From an uncultured Candidatus Actinomarina sp. (GTDB lineage: Bacteria; Actinomycetota; Acidimicrobiia; Actinomarinales; Actinomarinaceae), in assembly GCA_902526825.1 (NCBI GenBank), contig CABZMN010000002.1, forward strand, positions 90,265 through 154,264: DNA of 64,000 nucleotides. Reading direction: 5' to 3'. Made by a program: the position numbers and the translations under genes. Numbering within the stretch: the stretch's first letter is position 1; every line of letters starts with the position of its first letter. Shown here piece by piece: positions 4,392-41,104 of the stretch. The notes beneath the pieces are model-generated. The model saw only the letters and a program-made list of their open reading frames with translations, was not told where the DNA came from and did not search any database.

Positions 4392-5060
4392 ATGAGAGAT
4401 ATCAAAATAACCAAGAATTTTATTAACTCTGAAAATACATCAGTTCTCTATGAGTCTGGAAATACAAAAGTTTTAATTACGGTATCTATCTCAGATAGAG
4501 TTCCACGGTGGCTTGAAAACTCAGACAAGGGTTGGCTAACAGCTGAATATAATATGTTGCCTGGCTCTTCTGATCAAAGAGTTTCACGAAAATCTTTTGA
4601 AGGGGGAAGGTCAAAAGAAATATCAAGACTAATCGGAAGATCACTTCGATCTGTATGTGACCTTGGAATATTAAATGGATACTCAATAACTGTCGACTGT
4701 GATGTTCTTGATGCAGATGGAGGAACAAGAACAGCATCAATCAATGGTGCATGGATTGCACTTAATGAGACTTTCAACAACCTTGTTGATCAAAAAAAGT
4801 TAGTTCAAAACCCCCTAACAAACCAAATTGCTGCATTGTCAGTTGGGATAGTTGATGGAGATTTCATTGCAGATTTAGATTATGAAAAAGATTCGAGTGC
4901 TCAAGTAGATTTAAATCTTGTACTAAATGACAAATATGAGATATTAGAAATTCAAGGAACTGCAGAGCAAAAACCATTTTCTAAAGAAGACTTAGATAAA
5001 CTTTTTGAAATGACCAAAGAAGAGGTCAATAAAGTCTTTGATGTACAAAAGAATGTATGA
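4392..5060 (+). CDS. rph: ribonuclease PH
   Basis: 222 aa. DADGGTRTASINGAWIAL motif. Classic rph-rdgB pairing. Confidence 0.9.
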   Translation: MRDIKITKNFINSENTSVLYESGNTKVLITVSISDRVPRWLENSDKGWLTAEYNMLPGSSDQRVSRKSFEGGRSKEISRLIGRSLRSVCDLGILNGYSITVDCDVLDADGGTRTASINGAWIALNETFNNLVDQKKLVQNPLTNQIAALSVGIVDGDFIADLDYEKDSSAQVDLNLVLNDKYEILEIQGTAEQKPFSKEDLDKLFEMTKEEVNKVFDVQKNV

Positions 5061-5629
5061 AAATCTTATTTGCGAGTAAAAATAAGAACAAGTTCAAAGA
5101 AATAAAAGAGATTTTTAAAGATTCAAAATTTGAAATAATATTCGATGATGACCTTGAAGATGTTGTTGAAGATAAAGATACTATCTTAGGGAACGCTCAA
5201 AAAAAATCAGAAGAAATTTTTCTCAAGCATAATATTCCTGTCCTTTCAGATGACTCAGGATTATTTGTAGAAGCATTAGGAAATCTACCTGGAGTCTCAA
5301 CTGCTCGATATGCAGGGGAGAATGCTTCAGACCAAGAAAACATCGAAAAGATGTTGAAAAATTTATCAGATGAAGAAAATAGAAAGGCTTTTTTTAAAAC
5401 GGTCATATATTTTTTTGACGGAGAAATCAGATTAGATACTGAAGGAACATTGAATGGTCAAATAACTACGACTCCCCGAGGTAACAATGGTTTTGGATAC
5501 GATCCTATTTTCGAAATAGGTGGATCAACCCTGGCAGAGTTAAGTTTTGAAGAAAAAACAGATATAAGTCATAGAAAAATTGCCGCTAAAAAAATGTGTG
5601 ATTTGTTAACAGATACTTTTGCAGAATAA
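5057..5629 (+). CDS. rdgB: non-canonical purine NTP pyrophosphatase (RdgB/HAM1 family)
   Basis: 190 aa. FGYDPIF and SHR motifs. ATGA overlap with the rph stop. Confidence 0.88.
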   Translation: MKILFASKNKNKFKEIKEIFKDSKFEIIFDDDLEDVVEDKDTILGNAQKKSEEIFLKHNIPVLSDDSGLFVEALGNLPGVSTARYAGENASDQENIEKMLKNLSDEENRKAFFKTVIYFFDGEIRLDTEGTLNGQITTTPRGNNGFGYDPIFEIGGSTLAELSFEEKTDISHRKIAAKKMCDLLTDTFAE

Positions 5630-5641
5630 ATATTTTTTGTG

Positions 5642-5669
5642 TAGACAAGCTAATAAACGAAACTATTAT
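5642..5669 (+). promoter_or_regulatory. candidate promoter: TAGACA, 16-nt spacer, TATTAT
   Basis: -35-like TAGACA at 5642-5647 and -10-like TATTAT at 5664-5669. The predicted TSS near 5676 coincides with the ATG of the mini-ORF, which would give a leaderless transcript. Hexamer match only. Confidence 0.3.
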
Positions 5670-5675
5670 GAATTC

Positions 5676-5702
5676 ATGATTAACTTCATAATTATTATTT
5701 AA
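5676..5702 (+). promoter_or_regulatory. candidate leader peptide mini-ORF MINFIIII (Ile-rich)
   Basis: ATG ATT AAC TTC ATA ATT ATT ATT TAA. Five of 8 codons are Ile, with four consecutive Ile codons before the stop. No Shine-Dalgarno is visible, which is compatible with leaderless initiation. It lies just upstream of the hairpins and terminator that precede cimA. Confidence 0.4.
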
Positions 5703-5727
5703 GGACAACGAACTTTTCGTTGTTACC
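5703..5727 (+). promoter_or_regulatory. hairpin 1 (candidate anti-terminator)
   Basis: ACAACGAA (5705-5712) pairs with TTCGTTGT (5716-5723) around loop CTT. G5703/G5704 could additionally pair with C5726/C5727, which belong to the terminator's 5' arm. Confidence 0.35.
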
Positions 5728-5751
5728 CTTGCGTTGCAGGGGTTTTTTTTT
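5726..5751 (+). terminator. rho-independent terminator / attenuator
   Basis: CCCTTGC (5726-5732) pairs with GCAGGGG (5736-5742) as 7 bp including one G-U, loop GTT, followed by nine T (5743-5751). It ends 12 nt before the cimA ATG. Confidence 0.7.
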
Positions 5752-5763
5752 GGAAGAAGAAGA

Positions 5764-7326
5764 ATGAAGATAGACATATTTGATACGACACTAAGAGATG
5801 GCTTTCAACAGGAGGGAATCTCCCCATCAGTAAAGGATAAATTAGCTATTGCTAAGTTAATTGACGAGTTGGGTGTTGATTATATTGAAGGTGGATGGCC
5901 TGGAGCATCACCTAAGGAAAAAGAGTTTTTTGATAAAGCAAAAAAAGATTTAAAGCTTGAGAATGCAAAATTAGTTAGTTTTGGTTCTACAAGAAAATTA
6001 AATGTAAAAGTTGAAGATGATCCACAAGTACAGGCACTTATTGATTCTGAAACAGAGTACGTTTGCATCGTAGGTAAATCATCTAATCTTCACATTACAA
6101 AGGCTTTAGAGACTGATGTAGACAGTGCGATTTTAATGGCTTCTGATACCGTTAAATATCTTAAAGATAATGGAAGAAAAGTTTTTTTTGATGCAGAACA
6201 TTTCTTTGATGGTTTGAAAGAGGATTCAGAGACTACTTTGAAAATTTTAGATGCAGTAGTAAAAGAGGGCGTTGATTGTTTTATATTTTGTGATACCAAC
6301 GGAGGAACACTTCCTCATGAAGTCACAGATCTTTTAACTCCAATAGTGAAAAAGTATCCCGATCAATCATTTGGCGTTCACTTTCAAAATGACAATGGTT
6401 GTGCAGTTACAAACTCTCTCGCTGCAGTGAACCTTGGTGTGGAACATGTTCAAGGGACTATGAATGGTTATGGTGAGCGTACTGGTAATGCAGACCTTTG
6501 TACTCTTATTCCTAACCTCTCTTTAAAAATGGACTTTGAGACAGTGCCTGAAAAGTCACTTCAAAAACTAACTCCTATAGCAAATCACATTGCGGAATTA
6601 GTTAATATCGCTATTGACTCAAGACATCCTTATGTTGGTTCATCTGCCTTCACACATAAGGCAGGACTTCATGCTTCTGGTATGTCAAAAGACAATACTC
6701 TCTATGAGCACATAAACGCTAGTCAGGTAGGAAACTACACAAGAACTACTGTCTCTGAGTTAGCTGGAAGAGCAAGTGTAATTACTAAAGCAAAAGAATT
6801 TGGAATAGAACTTACAAACGATGATGCAAAAAATCTTATTGAGCAAGTACAAGATCTTGAATATCAAGGGTTTCAGTTTGAGGCTGCTGATGGTTCTCTA
6901 TATTTATTAATGAAAAAGATCAAAGGAGAAGAGCCATCTTTTTTTAATTTTGAAAGCTTCAGAGTATATTCAGAAAGAAGAAACTCTGAAAACGTTGTTT
7001 CAGAAGCTGTTTGTAAAATATCTGTAAATGAAGAAAGATTCGTAACAACAGGAGAGGGAGTTGGTCCTGTCGATGCATTAAATAAAGCTTTGAAATCTGC
7101 CTTGAATAAGAACTATCCGGATGTAGATAAGATTAAATTAACGGACTATAAAGTGAGAATCATTGACTCTTCAGATGGAACTGAGGCAAAAACAAGAGTT
7201 CTTGTTGAATTTACAGATGGCGAGATAAATTGGAGCACTATTGGTGTTCACGAAAATATAATTAATGCATCTTGGAATGCTTTATGTGATGGCTTTAATT
7301 ATTATTTTATGGAAAGTTCATCATAA
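5764..7326 (+). CDS. cimA: (R)-citramalate synthase (LeuA-related, about 520 aa form)
   Basis: MKIDIFDTTLRDGFQQEG, EGGWPGASPKEKEFF, NDNGCAVTNSLAAV, GTMNGYGERTGNADL, plus a C-terminal regulatory domain. The ORF-track start at 5734 (TTG) lies inside the terminator. ATG 5764 is preceded by GGAAGAAG. Confidence 0.78.
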   Translation: MKIDIFDTTLRDGFQQEGISPSVKDKLAIAKLIDELGVDYIEGGWPGASPKEKEFFDKAKKDLKLENAKLVSFGSTRKLNVKVEDDPQVQALIDSETEYVCIVGKSSNLHITKALETDVDSAILMASDTVKYLKDNGRKVFFDAEHFFDGLKEDSETTLKILDAVVKEGVDCFIFCDTNGGTLPHEVTDLLTPIVKKYPDQSFGVHFQNDNGCAVTNSLAAVNLGVEHVQGTMNGYGERTGNADLCTLIPNLSLKMDFETVPEKSLQKLTPIANHIAELVNIAIDSRHPYVGSSAFTHKAGLHASGMSKDNTLYEHINASQVGNYTRTTVSELAGRASVITKAKEFGIELTNDDAKNLIEQVQDLEYQGFQFEAADGSLYLLMKKIKGEEPSFFNFESFRVYSERRNSENVVSEAVCKISVNEERFVTTGEGVGPVDALNKALKSALNKNYPDVDKIKLTDYKVRIIDSSDGTEAKTRVLVEFTDGEINWSTIGVHENIINASWNALCDGFNYYFMESSS

Positions 7327-7357: not shown

Positions 7358-9304
7358 ATGTCTGAAAAAATTGAAAATTTACTTGGAGAAGATAGAACTT
7401 TTGACCCTCCATCGCGCATTGTAGATAATGCAAACGCTACACAAGAATGGTTTGACCTAGCCAATCAAGACAGACTTGCTTACTGGCAAAAACAAGCTTT
7501 AGAGAGAATTACCTGGTACAAAGAACCCAAAGAGATTTTGGACGATTCAGATGCACCTTTCTATAAATGGTTTAAGGATGGAGAACTCAACCTTGCATAC
7601 AATTGTCTCGATCGACATTTAGAAACTGATAGAGACAGAATTGCTTTTTACTGGGAGGGAGAACCTGGAGACTCTCAAGAAATAACCTATCAAGATCTTT
7701 ATGAGAGAGTCTGTAAGCTTTCAAACGGCCTCAAAGAGCTTGGTGTTAAGAAAGGTGATAGAATCGCAATTTACCTTGGTATGACGCCTGAAATTGTCAT
7801 CTCCATGCTCGCATGCGCAAGAATAGGTGCCGTGCATTCTGTCGTATTCGGAGGTTTTTCTGCAGGAGCTCTAGCTGACAGAATTAATGATGCTGAAGCA
7901 AAAGTTGTAATTACAGCAGATGGTGCTTGGAGAAGGGGAGAAATAGTTCCTCTAAAACAGAATGTGGATGACTCCCTAAAGCTTACCGATCATATAGAGA
8001 GCGTAATAGTTGTAAAGAGAACTGAGAACGATGTAACCATGGTTGATGGCAGAGACTATTGGTATAGCGAACTTGTAGATAAGCAGGAAACTGATTGTGA
8101 ACCTGAAGTAATGAACGCAGAGGACATGTTATATATCCTCTATACATCAGGTACAACAGCTAAACCAAAAGGAATCGTCCACACACAGGCTGGATATCTT
8201 ACGGGTGTTACTACAACACATTCTGCAGTATTTGACATAAAGGAAGATGACATCTATTGGTGTGCTGCAGACTGTGGTTGGGTAACAGGTCATAGTTATA
8301 TTGTGTATGGACCTTTAGCAAACAAAACAACAAGCGTTATGTATGAGGGTGCACCAAACGCACCAGATGAAAAAAGATTATGGAGTATCGTTGAAAAATA
8401 TAAAGTAAATATATTTTACACTGCCCCAACTGCAATTAGAGCTTTCATGAAGTGGGGAGTTGAGCATCCGCAAGCACATGACTTAACGTCACTCAGATTG
8501 TTAGGTACCGTTGGTGAGCCAATTAATCCAGAAGCCTGGATGTGGTACCACGAAAACATAGGAAATGAATCTTGTGCGATTGTAGATACATGGTGGCAGA
8601 CGGAGACTGGTTCAATAATGATTACACCTCTGCCAGGCATTACGAGTACAAAACCGGGGTCAGCATGTGGTCCAATGCCAGGCATAGATGCAGTTGTTGT
8701 TGATGAAAATGGAAATGAAGTCTCAAAAGGTGAAGGGGGATATTTAGCAATCAAAACACCTTGGCCATCAATGCTTAGAACAGTATTTGGTGACGAGAAA
8801 AGATATATCGATACTTATTGGTCAAAGTATGACGGGATGTATTTTGCAGGAGATGGTGCAAAATATGATGATGATGGATACTTCTGGCTTCTTGGAAGAG
8901 TTGATGATGTTATGAATATCTCCGGCCATAGAATTTCAACAGCTGAGGTAGAGAGTGCGCTTGTAGCACATGAATCAGTTGCTGAAGCAGCTGTAATTGG
9001 GAGAGCTGATGAGATTTCTGGTGAGGCTATTGCCGCCTTTGTTACTTTAATTGGTGGTTACGAGGGAAACGAAGAGCTAATTTCAACATTAAGACAACAT
9101 GTAAGTGATAAAATTGGACCAATTGCAAAACCAAAAAGTATAGTTATAACAAATGATCTTCCTAAGACAAGAAGTGGAAAAATTATGCGAAGATTATTAA
9201 AAGATATATCTGAGGAAAGAAAACTTGGTGATGTCACAACATTAGCGAATGCAGATATAGTTTCAGAGCTCCAAACAAGATCTTCCGAGTCAAGCGATGA
9301 GTGA
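7358..9304 (+). CDS. acs: acetyl-CoA synthetase (AMP-forming)
   Basis: 648 aa. [18 protein letters not shown], and C-terminal [11 protein letters not shown]. Confidence 0.95.
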
Positions 9305-9785
9305 GAGAACTCATTCCTGGGACCCACCTAAAGACGTTGCAGAAACTCTATTAAATCTGGACAAAGAAGGTCGAAGAGAGTATTTAAGAGAACTACCACC
9401 AGACTCATCAGGCATTGGTTCATTAATGGGATTTTCAAAAATCGAAATAGATGATGACGGCCATACCTCTTTCTACTGTAAACCAGCGGAATATCACTAT
9501 AACCCAATTGGAAGTGTCCATGGAGGTCTTGCAGCCACACTTCTTGACTCATGCAACAGCATCTCAGCTCAATGTAATTTGGATAAAGGATTTATTGCTT
9601 TAACGACTGATATTAAAGTTAATTATTTAAGTCAGATAACTGTGGACACTGGTGAGATTGTAGCAACCGGAAGAATAGATAAATTAGGTAGAAAAGTTAT
9701 TTTTGTAACAGGAGAGCTAAGAGACATGAACGGAAAACTTTTAGCTACAGCATCATCCACTGAACTTGTTGTTCAGATTTTCTAA
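9297..9785 (+). CDS. PaaI-family hotdog-fold thioesterase
   Basis: 162 aa. [14 protein letters not shown] motif. Its start overlaps the acs stop by 8 nt. Confidence 0.7.
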
Positions 9786-9792
9786 CTATTTG

Positions 9793-9875
9793 TGCGGATG
9801 AGAGGACTCGAACCTCCACGAGCAAAGCTCACTAGATCCTAAATCTAGCGCGTCTACCAGTTCCGCCACATCCGC
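9793..9875 (-). tRNA. tRNA-Leu (anticodon TAG)
   Basis: The reverse complement folds as a cloverleaf: acceptor GCGGATG/CATCCGC, anticodon arm CTAGA-TTTAGGA-TCTAG, long variable arm, T-loop TTCGAGT. No encoded CCA. Confidence 0.9.
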
Positions 9876-9886
9876 TAAATGTCGCG

Positions 9887-9959
9887 TGGGTCGCCGGGGA
9901 CTTGAACCCCGAACCTGCGGATTAAGAGTCCGTTGCTCTGCCAATTGAGCTAGCGACCC
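9887..9959 (-). tRNA. tRNA-Lys (anticodon CTT)
   Basis: Reverse complement: acceptor GGGTCGC/GCGACCC, anticodon loop CTCTTAA, T-loop TTCAAGT. No encoded CCA. Confidence 0.9.
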
Positions 9960-10054
9960 TTTTTACAGATTAACTTAACTCATAATACTTAACTATAAAT
10001 TTTTTGATTTATTGTTTCCATAAAAGCGTTATCATGGAACAATAATTAGACGTG

Positions 10055-10129
10055 CGGGCTGTGGCTCAGCTTGGCTAGAGCGCCTGCTTTGGGAGCAGGA
10101 GGTCGTGAGTTCGAATCTCACCAGCCCGA
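10055..10129 (+). tRNA. tRNA-Pro (anticodon TGG)
   Basis: Acceptor CGGGCTG/CAGCCCG, anticodon arm CCTGC-TTTGGGA-GCAGG, T-loop TTCGAAT. Confidence 0.9.
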
Positions 10130-10134
10130 CTAGC

Positions 10135-10205
10135 GCGGGTGTAGCTTAATGGCAAAGCTCCAGCCTTCCAAGCTGGCTATGAGGGTTCGATTCCCTTCAC
10201 CCGCT
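10135..10205 (+). tRNA. tRNA-Gly (anticodon TCC)
   Basis: Acceptor GCGGGTG/CACCCGC, anticodon arm CCAGC-CTTCCAA-GCTGG, T-loop TTCGATT. Confidence 0.9.
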
Positions 10206-10211
10206 CGAGAG

Positions 10212-10285
10212 GCTCTCGTAGCTCAAATGGATAGAGCAACAGACTTCTAATCTGTAGGTTATAGGTTCGAGTCCTATCGAGAGCG
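10212..10285 (+). tRNA. tRNA-Arg (anticodon TCT)
   Basis: Acceptor GCTCTCG/CGAGAGC, anticodon arm ACAGA-CTTCTAA-TCTGT, T-loop TTCGAGT. Confidence 0.9.
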
Positions 10286-10289
10286 CCGT

Positions 10290-10368
10290 GGTGATCGTAG
10301 CTCAGTTTGGTTAGAGCGCCTGGTTGTGGTCCAGGAGGTCGCGGGTTCGAATCCCGTCGGTCACCCCA
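10290..10368 (+). tRNA. tRNA-His (anticodon GTG) with encoded G-1 and CCA
   Basis: G-1 at 10290 lies opposite C73. Acceptor GTGATCG/CGGTCAC, anticodon arm CCTGG-TTGTGGT-CCAGG. CCA at 10366-10368. Confidence 0.9.
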
Positions 10369-24890: not shown

Positions 24891-25139
24891 ATGTCAAAAA
24901 CAAAAGCAGGTGGTTCAACTAGGAACGGAAGAGATTCAGAGTCTAAACGACTTGGTACAAAAGTTTTTGATGGCCAAAAAATCTCTGCAGGTTCTATCGT
25001 TGTCAGGCAAAGAGGAACAAAAATCCATCCAGGAAACAATGTGCAAAAAGGTGGAGATGATACTCTTTATGCCAAAGTAAATGGAACCGTAAAATATTCA
25101 ACCCGAAACGGAAGAAAACTAGTAAATATAATCCCGTAA
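24891..25139 (+). CDS. rpmA: 50S ribosomal protein L27
   Basis: [18 protein letters not shown] signature. Confidence 0.95.
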
Positions 25140-25143
25140 TGTC

Positions 25144-40162: not shown

Positions 40163-40840
40163 GTGACAAAGTTAATAATTACAGAAAACTTAATTTCAGA
40201 TATCAACCAAATAAAATCTGAAATAAATATCGATGAAAGTATTGTATCAATTTCTCAAGAAGAATTTACCGCGAACAATACTGCAGCTTTATTCCAAAGT
40301 GATAATTTCCAATTTGTATCAGATAGTTTCGTAACATACAGTGATTTAAAAAAAATTAATTATGATTTTAAAGAAAAATATATTTTTCAAGTTAAAAAAA
40401 ATAATTTAAAAACATTCTCAGCTGTTGCTGAATTAATTGAAACACATTATCCAGAAAACAAAAAAAGTACTGAGATTTACCCTTGGGACTTGGTAAATAT
40501 TATTTTTTCAAAGCAAAAAAAATTAACAAATGAAATTATTGATAAATTCTGTAATGACGAGACAGTATTTAGACAATTCATGTCGTATTTCAACAAAGAG
40601 CTTCAAAGATTGTTATTAATTTATAAATACGATGAAAAAAAAGTCGCAGAAGTACTTTCTGAAAAAGTAGATTACAAGTATGAGCTTGCTCAAAAAAGAA
40701 GAGACAAGTTAAATGTCATAGATTTAGAAAATTCTTTAAGTATGATTTATAAGATCGAAAAATTAAATACTAATTCGTCATTTAATCAAGAAAATGCAAA
40801 ACGTTTTGTGGTTTCTATAAAAAATCTACTACAGTTTTGA
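40163..40840 (+). CDS. hypothetical protein, possible shortened DNA polymerase III delta subunit
   Basis: No motif recognised. It occupies the holA slot between leuS and rpsT/lepA of actinobacterial synteny but is only 225 aa. GTG start immediately after the leuS stop. Confidence 0.35.
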   Translation: MTKLIITENLISDINQIKSEINIDESIVSISQEEFTANNTAALFQSDNFQFVSDSFVTYSDLKKINYDFKEKYIFQVKKNNLKTFSAVAELIETHYPENKKSTEIYPWDLVNIIFSKQKKLTNEIIDKFCNDETVFRQFMSYFNKELQRLLLIYKYDEKKVAEVLSEKVDYKYELAQKRRDKLNVIDLENSLSMIYKIEKLNTNSSFNQENAKRFVVSIKNLLQF

Positions 40841-41065
40841 AATTCGGGATTTATTTCTATCTCTATAATTTTTAGTTATTATACCGTTGGAATAAGCTCT
40901 ATCTAAATTTTTGATTACAGTATCTTTCTGTTCTTTTTCAACATCACTTTCCGAATTTAATATAGCTTTAATAGATGATCTTAGAGCTGTTTTTTTGTTC
41001 TTATTTCTAAGATTTTTCTTCTCGTCTTGTCTAATTCTCTTTTTTTGGGATTTAATATTTGCCAT
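40829..41065 (-). CDS. rpsT: 30S ribosomal protein S20
   Basis: MANIKSQKKRIRQDEKKNLRNK N-terminus. 78 aa. Confidence 0.93.
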   Translation of the reverse strand: MANIKSQKKRIRQDEKKNLRNKNKKTALRSSIKAILNSESDVEKEQKDTVIKNLDRAYSNGIITKNYRDRNKSRISKL

Positions 41066-41104
41066 CTAAAACCTCTTGGTATATAAGATAATAACTTATT
41101 AAAG

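Follow-up and report, generated by a model that had tools for sequence, protein, structure and literature searches.

Citramalate synthase (CimA) is the first enzyme of the pyruvate (citramalate), threonine-independent route to isoleucine (Ile). In a 64,000-nucleotide (nt) stretch of DNA from an uncultured Candidatus Actinomarina sp. (contig CABZMN010000002.1 of assembly GCA_902526825.1; 31% G+C; the whole stretch is referred to here as the window), its gene, cimA, is separated from the preceding rdgB gene by a 134-nt intergenic region that holds a promoter-like sequence, an Ile-rich short open reading frame (ORF), a hairpin (H1) and an intrinsic terminator (T). The question raised by this locus is whether these elements form a device by which the supply of Ile controls cimA, as proposed in an original prediction in which the region was read as a compact, probably leaderless, two-hairpin Ile attenuator, and by what means the first hairpin could act on the second. 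Judging from the comparison with related sequences, the element is very probably an Ile-responsive leader-peptide attenuator of cimA, reporting charged tRNA-Ile. Taken as a whole it is best explained as a ribosome-mediated transcription attenuator that ties cimA expression to charged tRNA-Ile, and this complete account, with a proposed tug-of-war step between H1 and T, was given an even chance of being right.

All sequence elements of the original prediction were located where it had placed them (Table 1). The rdgB/Ham1 ORF (5057-5629, + strand) has its last base at 5629, and the ORF starting at ATG 5764 scored 639.5 bits against the TIGR00977 citramalate synthase equivalog model (cut-off 450). 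The leader ORF reads ATG ATT AAC TTC ATA ATT ATT ATT TAA. H1, which had been described as a second hairpin at 5705-5723, has its core there and extends to 5704-5724 with inclusion of one G-U pair (-9.1 kcal/mol, z = -4.3). In T, the predicted stem of CCCTTGC (5726-5732) with GCAGGGG (5736-5742), followed by nine T, gains an eighth pair, A5725-T5743; the hairpin has a stability of -11.6 kcal/mol (z = -3.4) in the window calculation and -11.1 kcal/mol in the family survey. T is the sole strong intrinsic-terminator match in the window, other matches being weak and at shuffle frequency, and its T run ends 12 nt from the cimA ATG, a stretch too short for a promoter, as had been argued. The promoter candidate TAGACA-16 nt-TATTAT (5642-5669) matches 10/12 positions, the best score of any + strand candidate within the first 14 kb; the usual start position for it falls on A5676, the first base of the leader ATG. 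Neither a second copy of H1 or T nor a further attenuator-like element was found elsewhere in the 64-kb window, and a repeated or mobile element was rejected because both hairpins occur only once in it.

The window by itself is weak evidence, since Ile-codon runs and promoter-like hexamers are common at 31% G+C. Four Ile codons followed by a stop codon have an expected count of 0.28 per 64 kb and occurred at least once in 24/100 shuffles, and promoter-like sites numbered 41 against 44.7 expected from shuffles, with no excess. These chance frequencies would fit a reading in which there is no attenuator, T ends an acn-pdxH-rph-rdgB operon, and the mini-ORF and promoter match arose by chance in AT-rich DNA; that reading is contradicted by the comparative data that follow and was left with almost no credence.

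Upstream regions of cimA were collected from one-genome-per-species contigs, in which the closest CimA sequences came from uncultured Candidatus Actinomarina (77-91% identity) and the next tier from Acidimicrobiia metagenome-assembled genomes (MAGs; ~50-57% identity), and from a scan of metagenomes in which the N-terminal 200 residues of CimA served as query and which added 31 loci including nine further low-G+C variants. The total sample comprised 63 distinct leader regions with 52 distinct peptides, and promoter counts were made on 65 distinct regions. A common layout of promoter, short Ile ORF, H1, spacer and T was found upstream of cimA in the 63 distinct regions, which span 32-73% G+C, with leader peptides such as MKKIIIII (L001, L003), MKIIGIIIM (L002), MFIPDNTIIIE (L006), MRPYDLGIIIR (L007), MNGPATSIIIII (L022) and MTEPRTPIIIP (L052), each followed by a stop codon. 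Since the same arrangement is found in genomes of up to 73% G+C, the A/T-rich Ile run is not a by-product of composition, and three consecutive ATH codons, estimated at ~1e-5 per position at 65% G+C, are nevertheless present in most members. The gene upstream of the element is rdgB in the window and in L005 and another gene in L001-L003, and at about half of the loci the nearest long upstream ORF lies on the opposite strand (ORF calls in high-G+C DNA being rough); because the element is linked to cimA and not to any particular upstream gene, T is not simply the end of an upstream operon. The combination of features, together with its conservation in relatives, is non-random. The alignment of orthologues proposed in the original prediction thus bore it out, as the promoter (at leaderless distance), the Ile run, the stop-codon hairpin with its compensatory changes and the terminator are all kept.

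Five loci from MAGs labelled Armatimonadetes, Verrucomicrobiales or Acidobacteriota (L031, L040, L052, L053, L058) have the same leader architecture and an Acidimicrobiia-like CimA (~50% identity); the odd taxon labels could reflect mis-binning, loose labelling or horizontal transfer.

The leader ORFs of the relatives are 7-14 codons long, and their Ile run comprises 3-5 codons (2 in a minority), ending 0-2 codons before the stop codon. Ile makes up 33.5% of leader residues (52 distinct peptides) versus 4.5% of CimA residues, and the codons used vary (ATC, ATT, ATA; ATCATTATC, ATCATCATT, ATCATCATC, ATAATTATTATT) while the encoded residue stays constant. In high-G+C members the rarer codon ATT accounts for 30% of leader Ile codons versus 6.7% in the adjacent cimA coding sequence (Fisher p = 3e-10, not corrected for shared ancestry), and nearly every high-G+C leader has about one ATT among its Ile codons. 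Rarer, wobble-read codons are typical of attenuator leaders. Threonine (Thr) is the second most enriched leader residue (19.3% versus 6.1% in CimA) and makes up 36% of the three residues directly before the Ile run (e.g. MTGSGTTTTTIIIT, MARTTTTIIIIE; relatives such as L121, L145, L155 and L035). The Thr codons that often precede the Ile run in high-G+C cimA leaders recall thrL, and by that analogy the enrichment could reflect joint sensing of Thr and Ile; alternatively it could be neutral decay of Ile codons, which is conceivable because ATC and ACC are one transition apart.

Upstream of the leader ORF, the -35 hexamer is TTGAC[N] in 46/65 distinct leader regions and TAGACA in 12 regions of Actinomarina type, and the -10 hexamer is CATACT in 42/65. 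The spacer between them is 17 nt in 50/65 regions and 16 nt, as in the window, in 10/65. The distance from the end of the -10 hexamer to the leader ATG is 6 nt in the window and 6-10 nt in 54/65 regions, and since the -10 hexamer ends so close to the ATG there is no room for a Shine-Dalgarno sequence. On this promoter spacing the transcript is probably leaderless or has a 5' untranslated region (UTR) of a few nt.

H1 lies at a nearly fixed place relative to the leader stop codon, starting -2 to +6 nt from its first base in 62/63 distinct relatives; the commonest start is +2, with the G of UAG as first paired base. Its arms differ among lineages (ACAACGAA/UUCGUUGU, GGCGCACACG/CGUGUGCGCC, GGCGUCCACC/GGUGGACGCC, GGCAUAGGG/CCCUGUGCC and others). 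Since H1 was misaligned in the MAFFT alignments (A1, A2), its loop length being variable, covariation was counted by script on the hairpin of each sequence; RNAalifold on the same alignments recovered T, and H1 only in part. Among 37 sequences there were 32 distinct 5' arms, and 7.95 of 8 positions paired when both arms were taken from one sequence, versus 3.39 of 8 when arms were combined across sequences. The sense strand folded better than the antisense strand in 31/37 sequences, and G-U pairs were present. H1 is an RNA structure, because its arms covary, G-U pairs occur and the sense strand gives the better fold; a DNA operator was ruled out by the G-U pairs and the sense-strand advantage. 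The 3' arm of H1 is conserved in sequence beyond the needs of pairing.

A terminator between the leader ORF and cimA was kept in 63/63 relatives, all of which show the consensus ACCCUYC...GGGU with a U-rich tail behind it. The spacer between H1 and T is 0 nt in the window and 0-7 nt in the 63 relatives (median 2, standard deviation 2; at most 4 nt in 55/63), and the distance from T to cimA in the same relatives is loose (13-73 nt, standard deviation 14.5). These features bear on a reading in which control is post-transcriptional, through translation or mRNA stability, and T either marks the 3' end of a small RNA or terminates constitutively but partially. Precedents for it exist, in that the leaderless Cys short ORFs of mycobacteria act on translation (bioRxiv 10.1101/834739) and many actinobacterial leaders are without attenuator components (Seliverstov et al., PMC1262725). 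However, no conserved predicted structure sequestering the cimA ribosome-binding region was found, the leader is separated from cimA by a conserved hairpin with U-tract in all members (in the window, the one strong terminator of the 64 kb), and the tight H1-T spacing would be left unexplained, so that post-transcriptional control was considered quite improbable. In high-G+C relatives the sequence after T is conserved beyond what a plain U-tract needs, with recurring UUUCAUUUGG, UUUUCUAAUUGG and UUCUCUAUCCGGAG.

The spacing of the Ile run, stop codon and H1 determines how a translating ribosome would affect H1. A ribosome was taken to keep mRNA single-stranded to 9-12 nt past the first base of the A-site codon, and H1 energies were calculated on this basis. 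Mean H1 stability across the 63 members was -16.2 kcal/mol with no ribosome, -15.9 to -15.4 kcal/mol with the first Ile codon of the run in the A site, -11.7 to -6.0 kcal/mol with the last Ile codon, and -2.4 to -1.3 kcal/mol with the stop codon; the corresponding values for the window in the same mask calculation were -8.0 (free), -8.0 (first Ile codon), -3.1 to 0 (last Ile codon) and 0 kcal/mol (stop codon). A ribosome waiting on the Ile codons leaves H1 folded, and one past the run or at the stop codon leaves it unwound, a logic conserved in spacing and energy that agrees with what the original prediction had supposed for the stalled and the terminating ribosome. Since a ribosome at the stop codon masks H1, H1 is the positional counterpart of the classical 2:3 antiterminator and not of the 1:2 hairpin.

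The weakening of T that had been supposed to accompany intact H1 was not seen in folds calculated with ribosome masks. H1 and T share no bases, and both are present in the minimum-energy fold of every member. When constrained partition functions were computed for 37 members with the RNA masked at up to 13 ribosome positions, the pair probability of T remained at ~0.96 for the family and 0.97 for the window under every mask. A classical antiterminator sharing bases with T was rejected because T was unaffected by the masks, with the exceptions of L032 and L037. In these two members (~30-55 nt past the leader stop codon) the H1 3' arm, CCCUGUGCC, nearly repeats the T 5' arm, CCCUGCGCC, and masking of the H1 5' arm switches the T 3' arm onto the H1 3' arm; the alternative is still a hairpin adjoining the U-tract, and the hairpin pair looks like a tandem duplication. 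In the MKKIIIII leaders (L001, L003, L085-L088, L091, L092) an A7 run in the two Lys codons (codons 2-3) is predicted to pair with the terminator U-tract and so to enclose both hairpins; this pairing would be covered by a translating ribosome.

A smaller overlap had been suggested in the original prediction, in which H1 is extended by pairing of G5703/G5704 with C5726/C5727. That extension does occur in the nascent minimum-energy fold of the window; it contributes only ~2 kcal/mol and is confined to part of the Actinomarina clade. In its fuller form, as a minimal-overlap antiterminator, U5700-G5704 would pair with C5727-G5731 and steal the bottom pairs of T. Before the T 3' arm is made, the window RNA prefers this UAAGG:CCUUG extension (-11.0 kcal/mol, versus H1 alone at -9.1 kcal/mol), the T 5' arm has its first bases paired with a probability of 0.45-0.57 in the window, L001 and L003, and a 3-nt 'boundary trinucleotide' has been proposed for Corynebacterium glutamicum ilvBNC (PMC11857589). 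Once T is complete, however, H1 plus T is favoured at -20.7 kcal/mol over -10.1 to -12.5 kcal/mol for the extended form; G5704 is an A in the closest relatives L081 and L082 (CimA 98-99% identical), and L083, L084, L089 and L090 are without the GG. The extension is absent from high-G+C members, and since its 5' strand coincides with the region of the stop codon, that strand would be covered by a ribosome stalled past the first Ile codon. With the ribosome on an early Ile codon and the 3' arm not yet made, the mean paired probability of the T 5' arm was 0.23, exceeding 0.5 in 2/36 members, and sequestration of that arm in the nascent transcript was set aside as weak and not conserved. The minimal-overlap reading was accordingly rated unlikely. 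Because T was unaffected by the masks and the GG:CC extension is weak and not conserved, the coupling of H1 to T is probably not a base-pair overlap.

Two routes by which a ribosome might pass the leader stop codon were also dismissed. Against frameshifting at hungry Ile codons, both shifted frames (+1 and +2) close early in L001, and the sequences do not consistently keep any alternative frame open; against stop-codon read-through through T, starvation offers no cause for it, and the open frame 0 in the four low-G+C sequences has an estimated chance probability of ~0.3 for each sequence.

A mechanism without shared bases has been described in tug-of-war riboswitches, in which 0-4 nt separate an upstream structure from an intrinsic terminator that shares none of its sequence, stabilisation of the upstream structure gives more read-through, and a longer spacer gives less until the effect disappears (Bushhouse, Fu and Lucks, bioRxiv 2026). 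In that work the behaviour was found in ~10% of natural ZTP riboswitches and attributed to steric competition for the RNA polymerase exit channel. Likewise, H1 abuts T in the cimA leader, no shared bases are needed and the spacer is at most 4 nt in 55/63 members; the cimA leader differs in that a ligand stabilises the aptamer of the riboswitch, whereas in the cimA leader the ribosome would destabilise a simple hairpin. By this analogy, folded H1 may suppress T by a steric tug-of-war and not by base-pair competition, a step to which slightly less than even odds were assigned, and since the H1-T spacer is tightly constrained the mechanism would depend on adjacency.

In the proposed sequence of events, the promoter at 5642-5669 would start a transcript at or next to the ATG of the 8-codon leader ORF, and a 70S ribosome would load on the 5' end without a Shine-Dalgarno sequence. 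With plentiful Ile-tRNA, the ribosome would stand at the stop codon while RNA polymerase transcribes T, the 5' arm of H1 would be unwound, and ~10-15 nt of single-stranded slack would be left upstream of T, allowing T to fold in the RNA exit channel and transcription to end 12 nt before cimA. With scarce Ile-tRNA, the ribosome would wait on the Ile codons, just short of H1, and folded H1, with the stalled ribosome directly behind it and set against the base of T, would hinder completion of the terminator hairpin and give read-through into cimA and probably acs.

Several points weigh against this account. It implies that untranslated transcripts read through, so that the default is ON, the opposite of classical superattenuation, and repression would require efficient leaderless initiation. 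For high-G+C members, in which 8-12 nt separate the end of the -10 hexamer from the ATG, a strictly leaderless start and a 5' UTR of 2-5 nt are equally likely. The T hairpins are not weak, at -11.6 kcal/mol in the window and a family mean of -15.2 kcal/mol; of the terminators tested in the riboswitch study, only the weakest was clearly affected by a plain upstream hairpin, and it took a pseudoknot or ligand-bound aptamers to produce larger effects (Bushhouse, Fu and Lucks, bioRxiv 2026). Finally, mutation of the candidate regulatory codons of Streptomyces coelicolor ilvB was without effect, as that work is cited in PMC1262725; actinobacterial leader ORFs beside terminators are therefore not always functional attenuators.

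The same Ile sensor could instead be read through a factor or a kinetic effect, with H1 acting as a pause hairpin that keeps polymerase and ribosome in step, or T depending on NusA, NusG or upstream single-stranded RNA. H1 is placed like the pause (1:2) hairpin of classical attenuators, its 3' arm is conserved more than pairing requires, and the U-tracts of high-G+C members are interrupted (mostly 4-6 U in the first 8 nt); NusG aids mycobacterial RNA polymerase at suboptimal terminators (PMC3993855). A pause alone, however, leaves unexplained why the outcome at T should differ between two ribosome states, no motif for factor binding was identified, and the perfect nine-U tract of the window should need no factor. 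A factor or kinetic effect was therefore held to be improbable, on a par with the minimal-overlap antiterminator. Returning to the tug-of-war account, it can be put forward, tentatively, that the cimA leader works without antiterminator base-pairing, that the ribosome and not a ligand lifts the hairpin block, and that this arrangement is widespread in a bacterial class that includes marine Actinomarina.

Compared with known systems, the cimA leader resembles enterobacterial trpL, hisL, leuL, thrL and ilvL in having a short ORF with codons for the pathway product, followed by an intrinsic terminator before the first gene, with ribosome position as the deciding variable. Unlike these, it has no antiterminator sharing terminator bases, no region 1 and no Shine-Dalgarno sequence, and its sole upstream hairpin abuts the terminator without overlap. 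Of the features of a classical attenuator, the ORF with regulatory codons, the terminator before the gene and, on spacing and calculated energies, a ribosome-dependent RNA structure are present, and a mutually exclusive antiterminator is absent. Within the Actinomycetota, leuA and trp of C. glutamicum are likewise controlled by leaderless leader-peptide attenuators. C. glutamicum ilvBNC shares with the cimA leader the phylum, the branched-chain amino-acid pathway and a leader peptide without ribosome-binding site; there a leaderless leader peptide drives attenuation, and the antiterminator/terminator overlap is only 3 nt in the model (PMC11857589). The ilvBNC leader folds into an anti-antiterminator, an antiterminator and a terminator, three hairpins that share bases, and its 15-codon peptide mixes Ile, Leu and Val codons; the cimA leader, with two hairpins, shows no conserved sharing, and the run beside its stop codon is of Ile alone. 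Branched-chain codon runs and poly-U terminators with no recognisable antiterminator have been reported for ilvB leaders of Corynebacterium, Mycobacterium and Streptomyces (Seliverstov et al. 2005, PMC1262725); in those leaders the ORF overlaps the terminator, whereas the cimA leader ORF ends ~25 nt before T with a separate conserved hairpin between. The term 'citramalate synthase' has 0 occurrences in that study, which concerned other actinobacterial genera. The mycobacterial poly-Cys leaderless short ORFs also carry a run of product codons near the 3' end and relieve attenuation of downstream genes upon starvation; unlike the cimA leader, they act translationally, with the Shine-Dalgarno sequence sequestered by a long duplex and no intrinsic terminator (bioRxiv 10.1101/834739). 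No leader-peptide attenuator of the tug-of-war type was described in the riboswitch preprint, in which the effect of a plain hairpin was modest.

In a search against Rfam 15, only tRNAs reached gathering score in the window, nothing around the element was better than E = 0.97, and ten representative relatives gave tRNAs only. A T-box was ruled out by the lack of an Rfam match and by the size of the intergenic region, which is too small for one. No paper linking citramalate synthase or Acidimicrobiia to a leader peptide or attenuator was found in the searchable full-text literature. An attenuator of cimA in Acidimicrobiia, probably leaderless, is thus undescribed; what is new is its gene, its taxon and its layout of two hairpins, and no earlier regulatory element for the citramalate route to Ile was found in that literature. 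Its host group is among the most abundant and most streamlined marine bacteria, and the family of at least 63 distinct members could yield a covariance model for annotating Acidimicrobiia genomes. A sensor hairpin that abuts a terminator without sharing bases makes the puzzle of missing components in actinobacterial leaders (Seliverstov et al. 2005) testable. If the tug-of-war step is true, this would be the first leader-peptide case of that mechanism, and one in which termination would depend on translation.

Table 1. Features of the cimA leader and of the genes that follow it, in window coordinates.
Feature	Position	Strand	Basis or remark
-35-like hexamer TAGACA	5642-5647	+	Kept in 12 Actinomarina-type relatives
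-10-like hexamer TATTAT, 6 nt upstream of ATG	5664-5669	+	Promoter match
Leader ORF MINFIIII, probably leaderless from about A5676	5676-5702	+	Homologous ORFs upstream of cimA at 63 distinct loci
Four Ile codons ATA ATT ATT ATT, presumed sensing codons	5688-5699	+	Run kept in relatives
Hairpin H1, 9 base pairs (bp), loop CUU, 2 nt past stop codon	5704-5724	+	Fold; covariation
Intrinsic terminator T, 8-bp stem 5725-5743, loop GUU, nine T 5743-5751	5725-5751	+	Fold; motif match
Purine-rich 12-nt stretch GGAAGAAGAAGA, terminator to cimA start	5752-5763	+	Too short for a promoter
cimA, (R)-citramalate synthase, presumed regulated gene	5764-7326	+	TIGR00977; Pfam HMGL-like, HCS_D2, LeuA_dimer
acs, acetate-CoA ligase	7358-9304	+	Profile matches
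Hotdog thioesterase	9297-9785	+	Profile matches

The genes for acs and the hotdog thioesterase are probably on one transcript with cimA, as the 31-nt gap indicates. Since acetyl-CoA is the co-substrate of CimA, the attenuator may also control acetate activation. The cimA-acs-hotdog thioesterase linkage was found in 4/4 Actinomarina-type genome loci (L001, L002, L003, L005) and in 0/76 other genome loci.

The window is a very compact gene array, almost all on the + strand, and the cimA leader is among its few non-coding stretches. Two apparent intergenic gaps, both taken from a list of ORFs of at least 100 amino acids, appear to hold small ribosomal protein genes: the sequence at 24892-25141 (+ strand), after L21, reads like ribosomal protein L27, and that at ~40840-41066 (- strand) reads like ribosomal protein S20. 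Directly after the hotdog thioesterase gene, six tRNA genes (2 on the minus and 4 on the plus strand) occupy 9793-10365, a cluster that extends over position 10324, where the trigger factor ORF starts in the mechanical listing.

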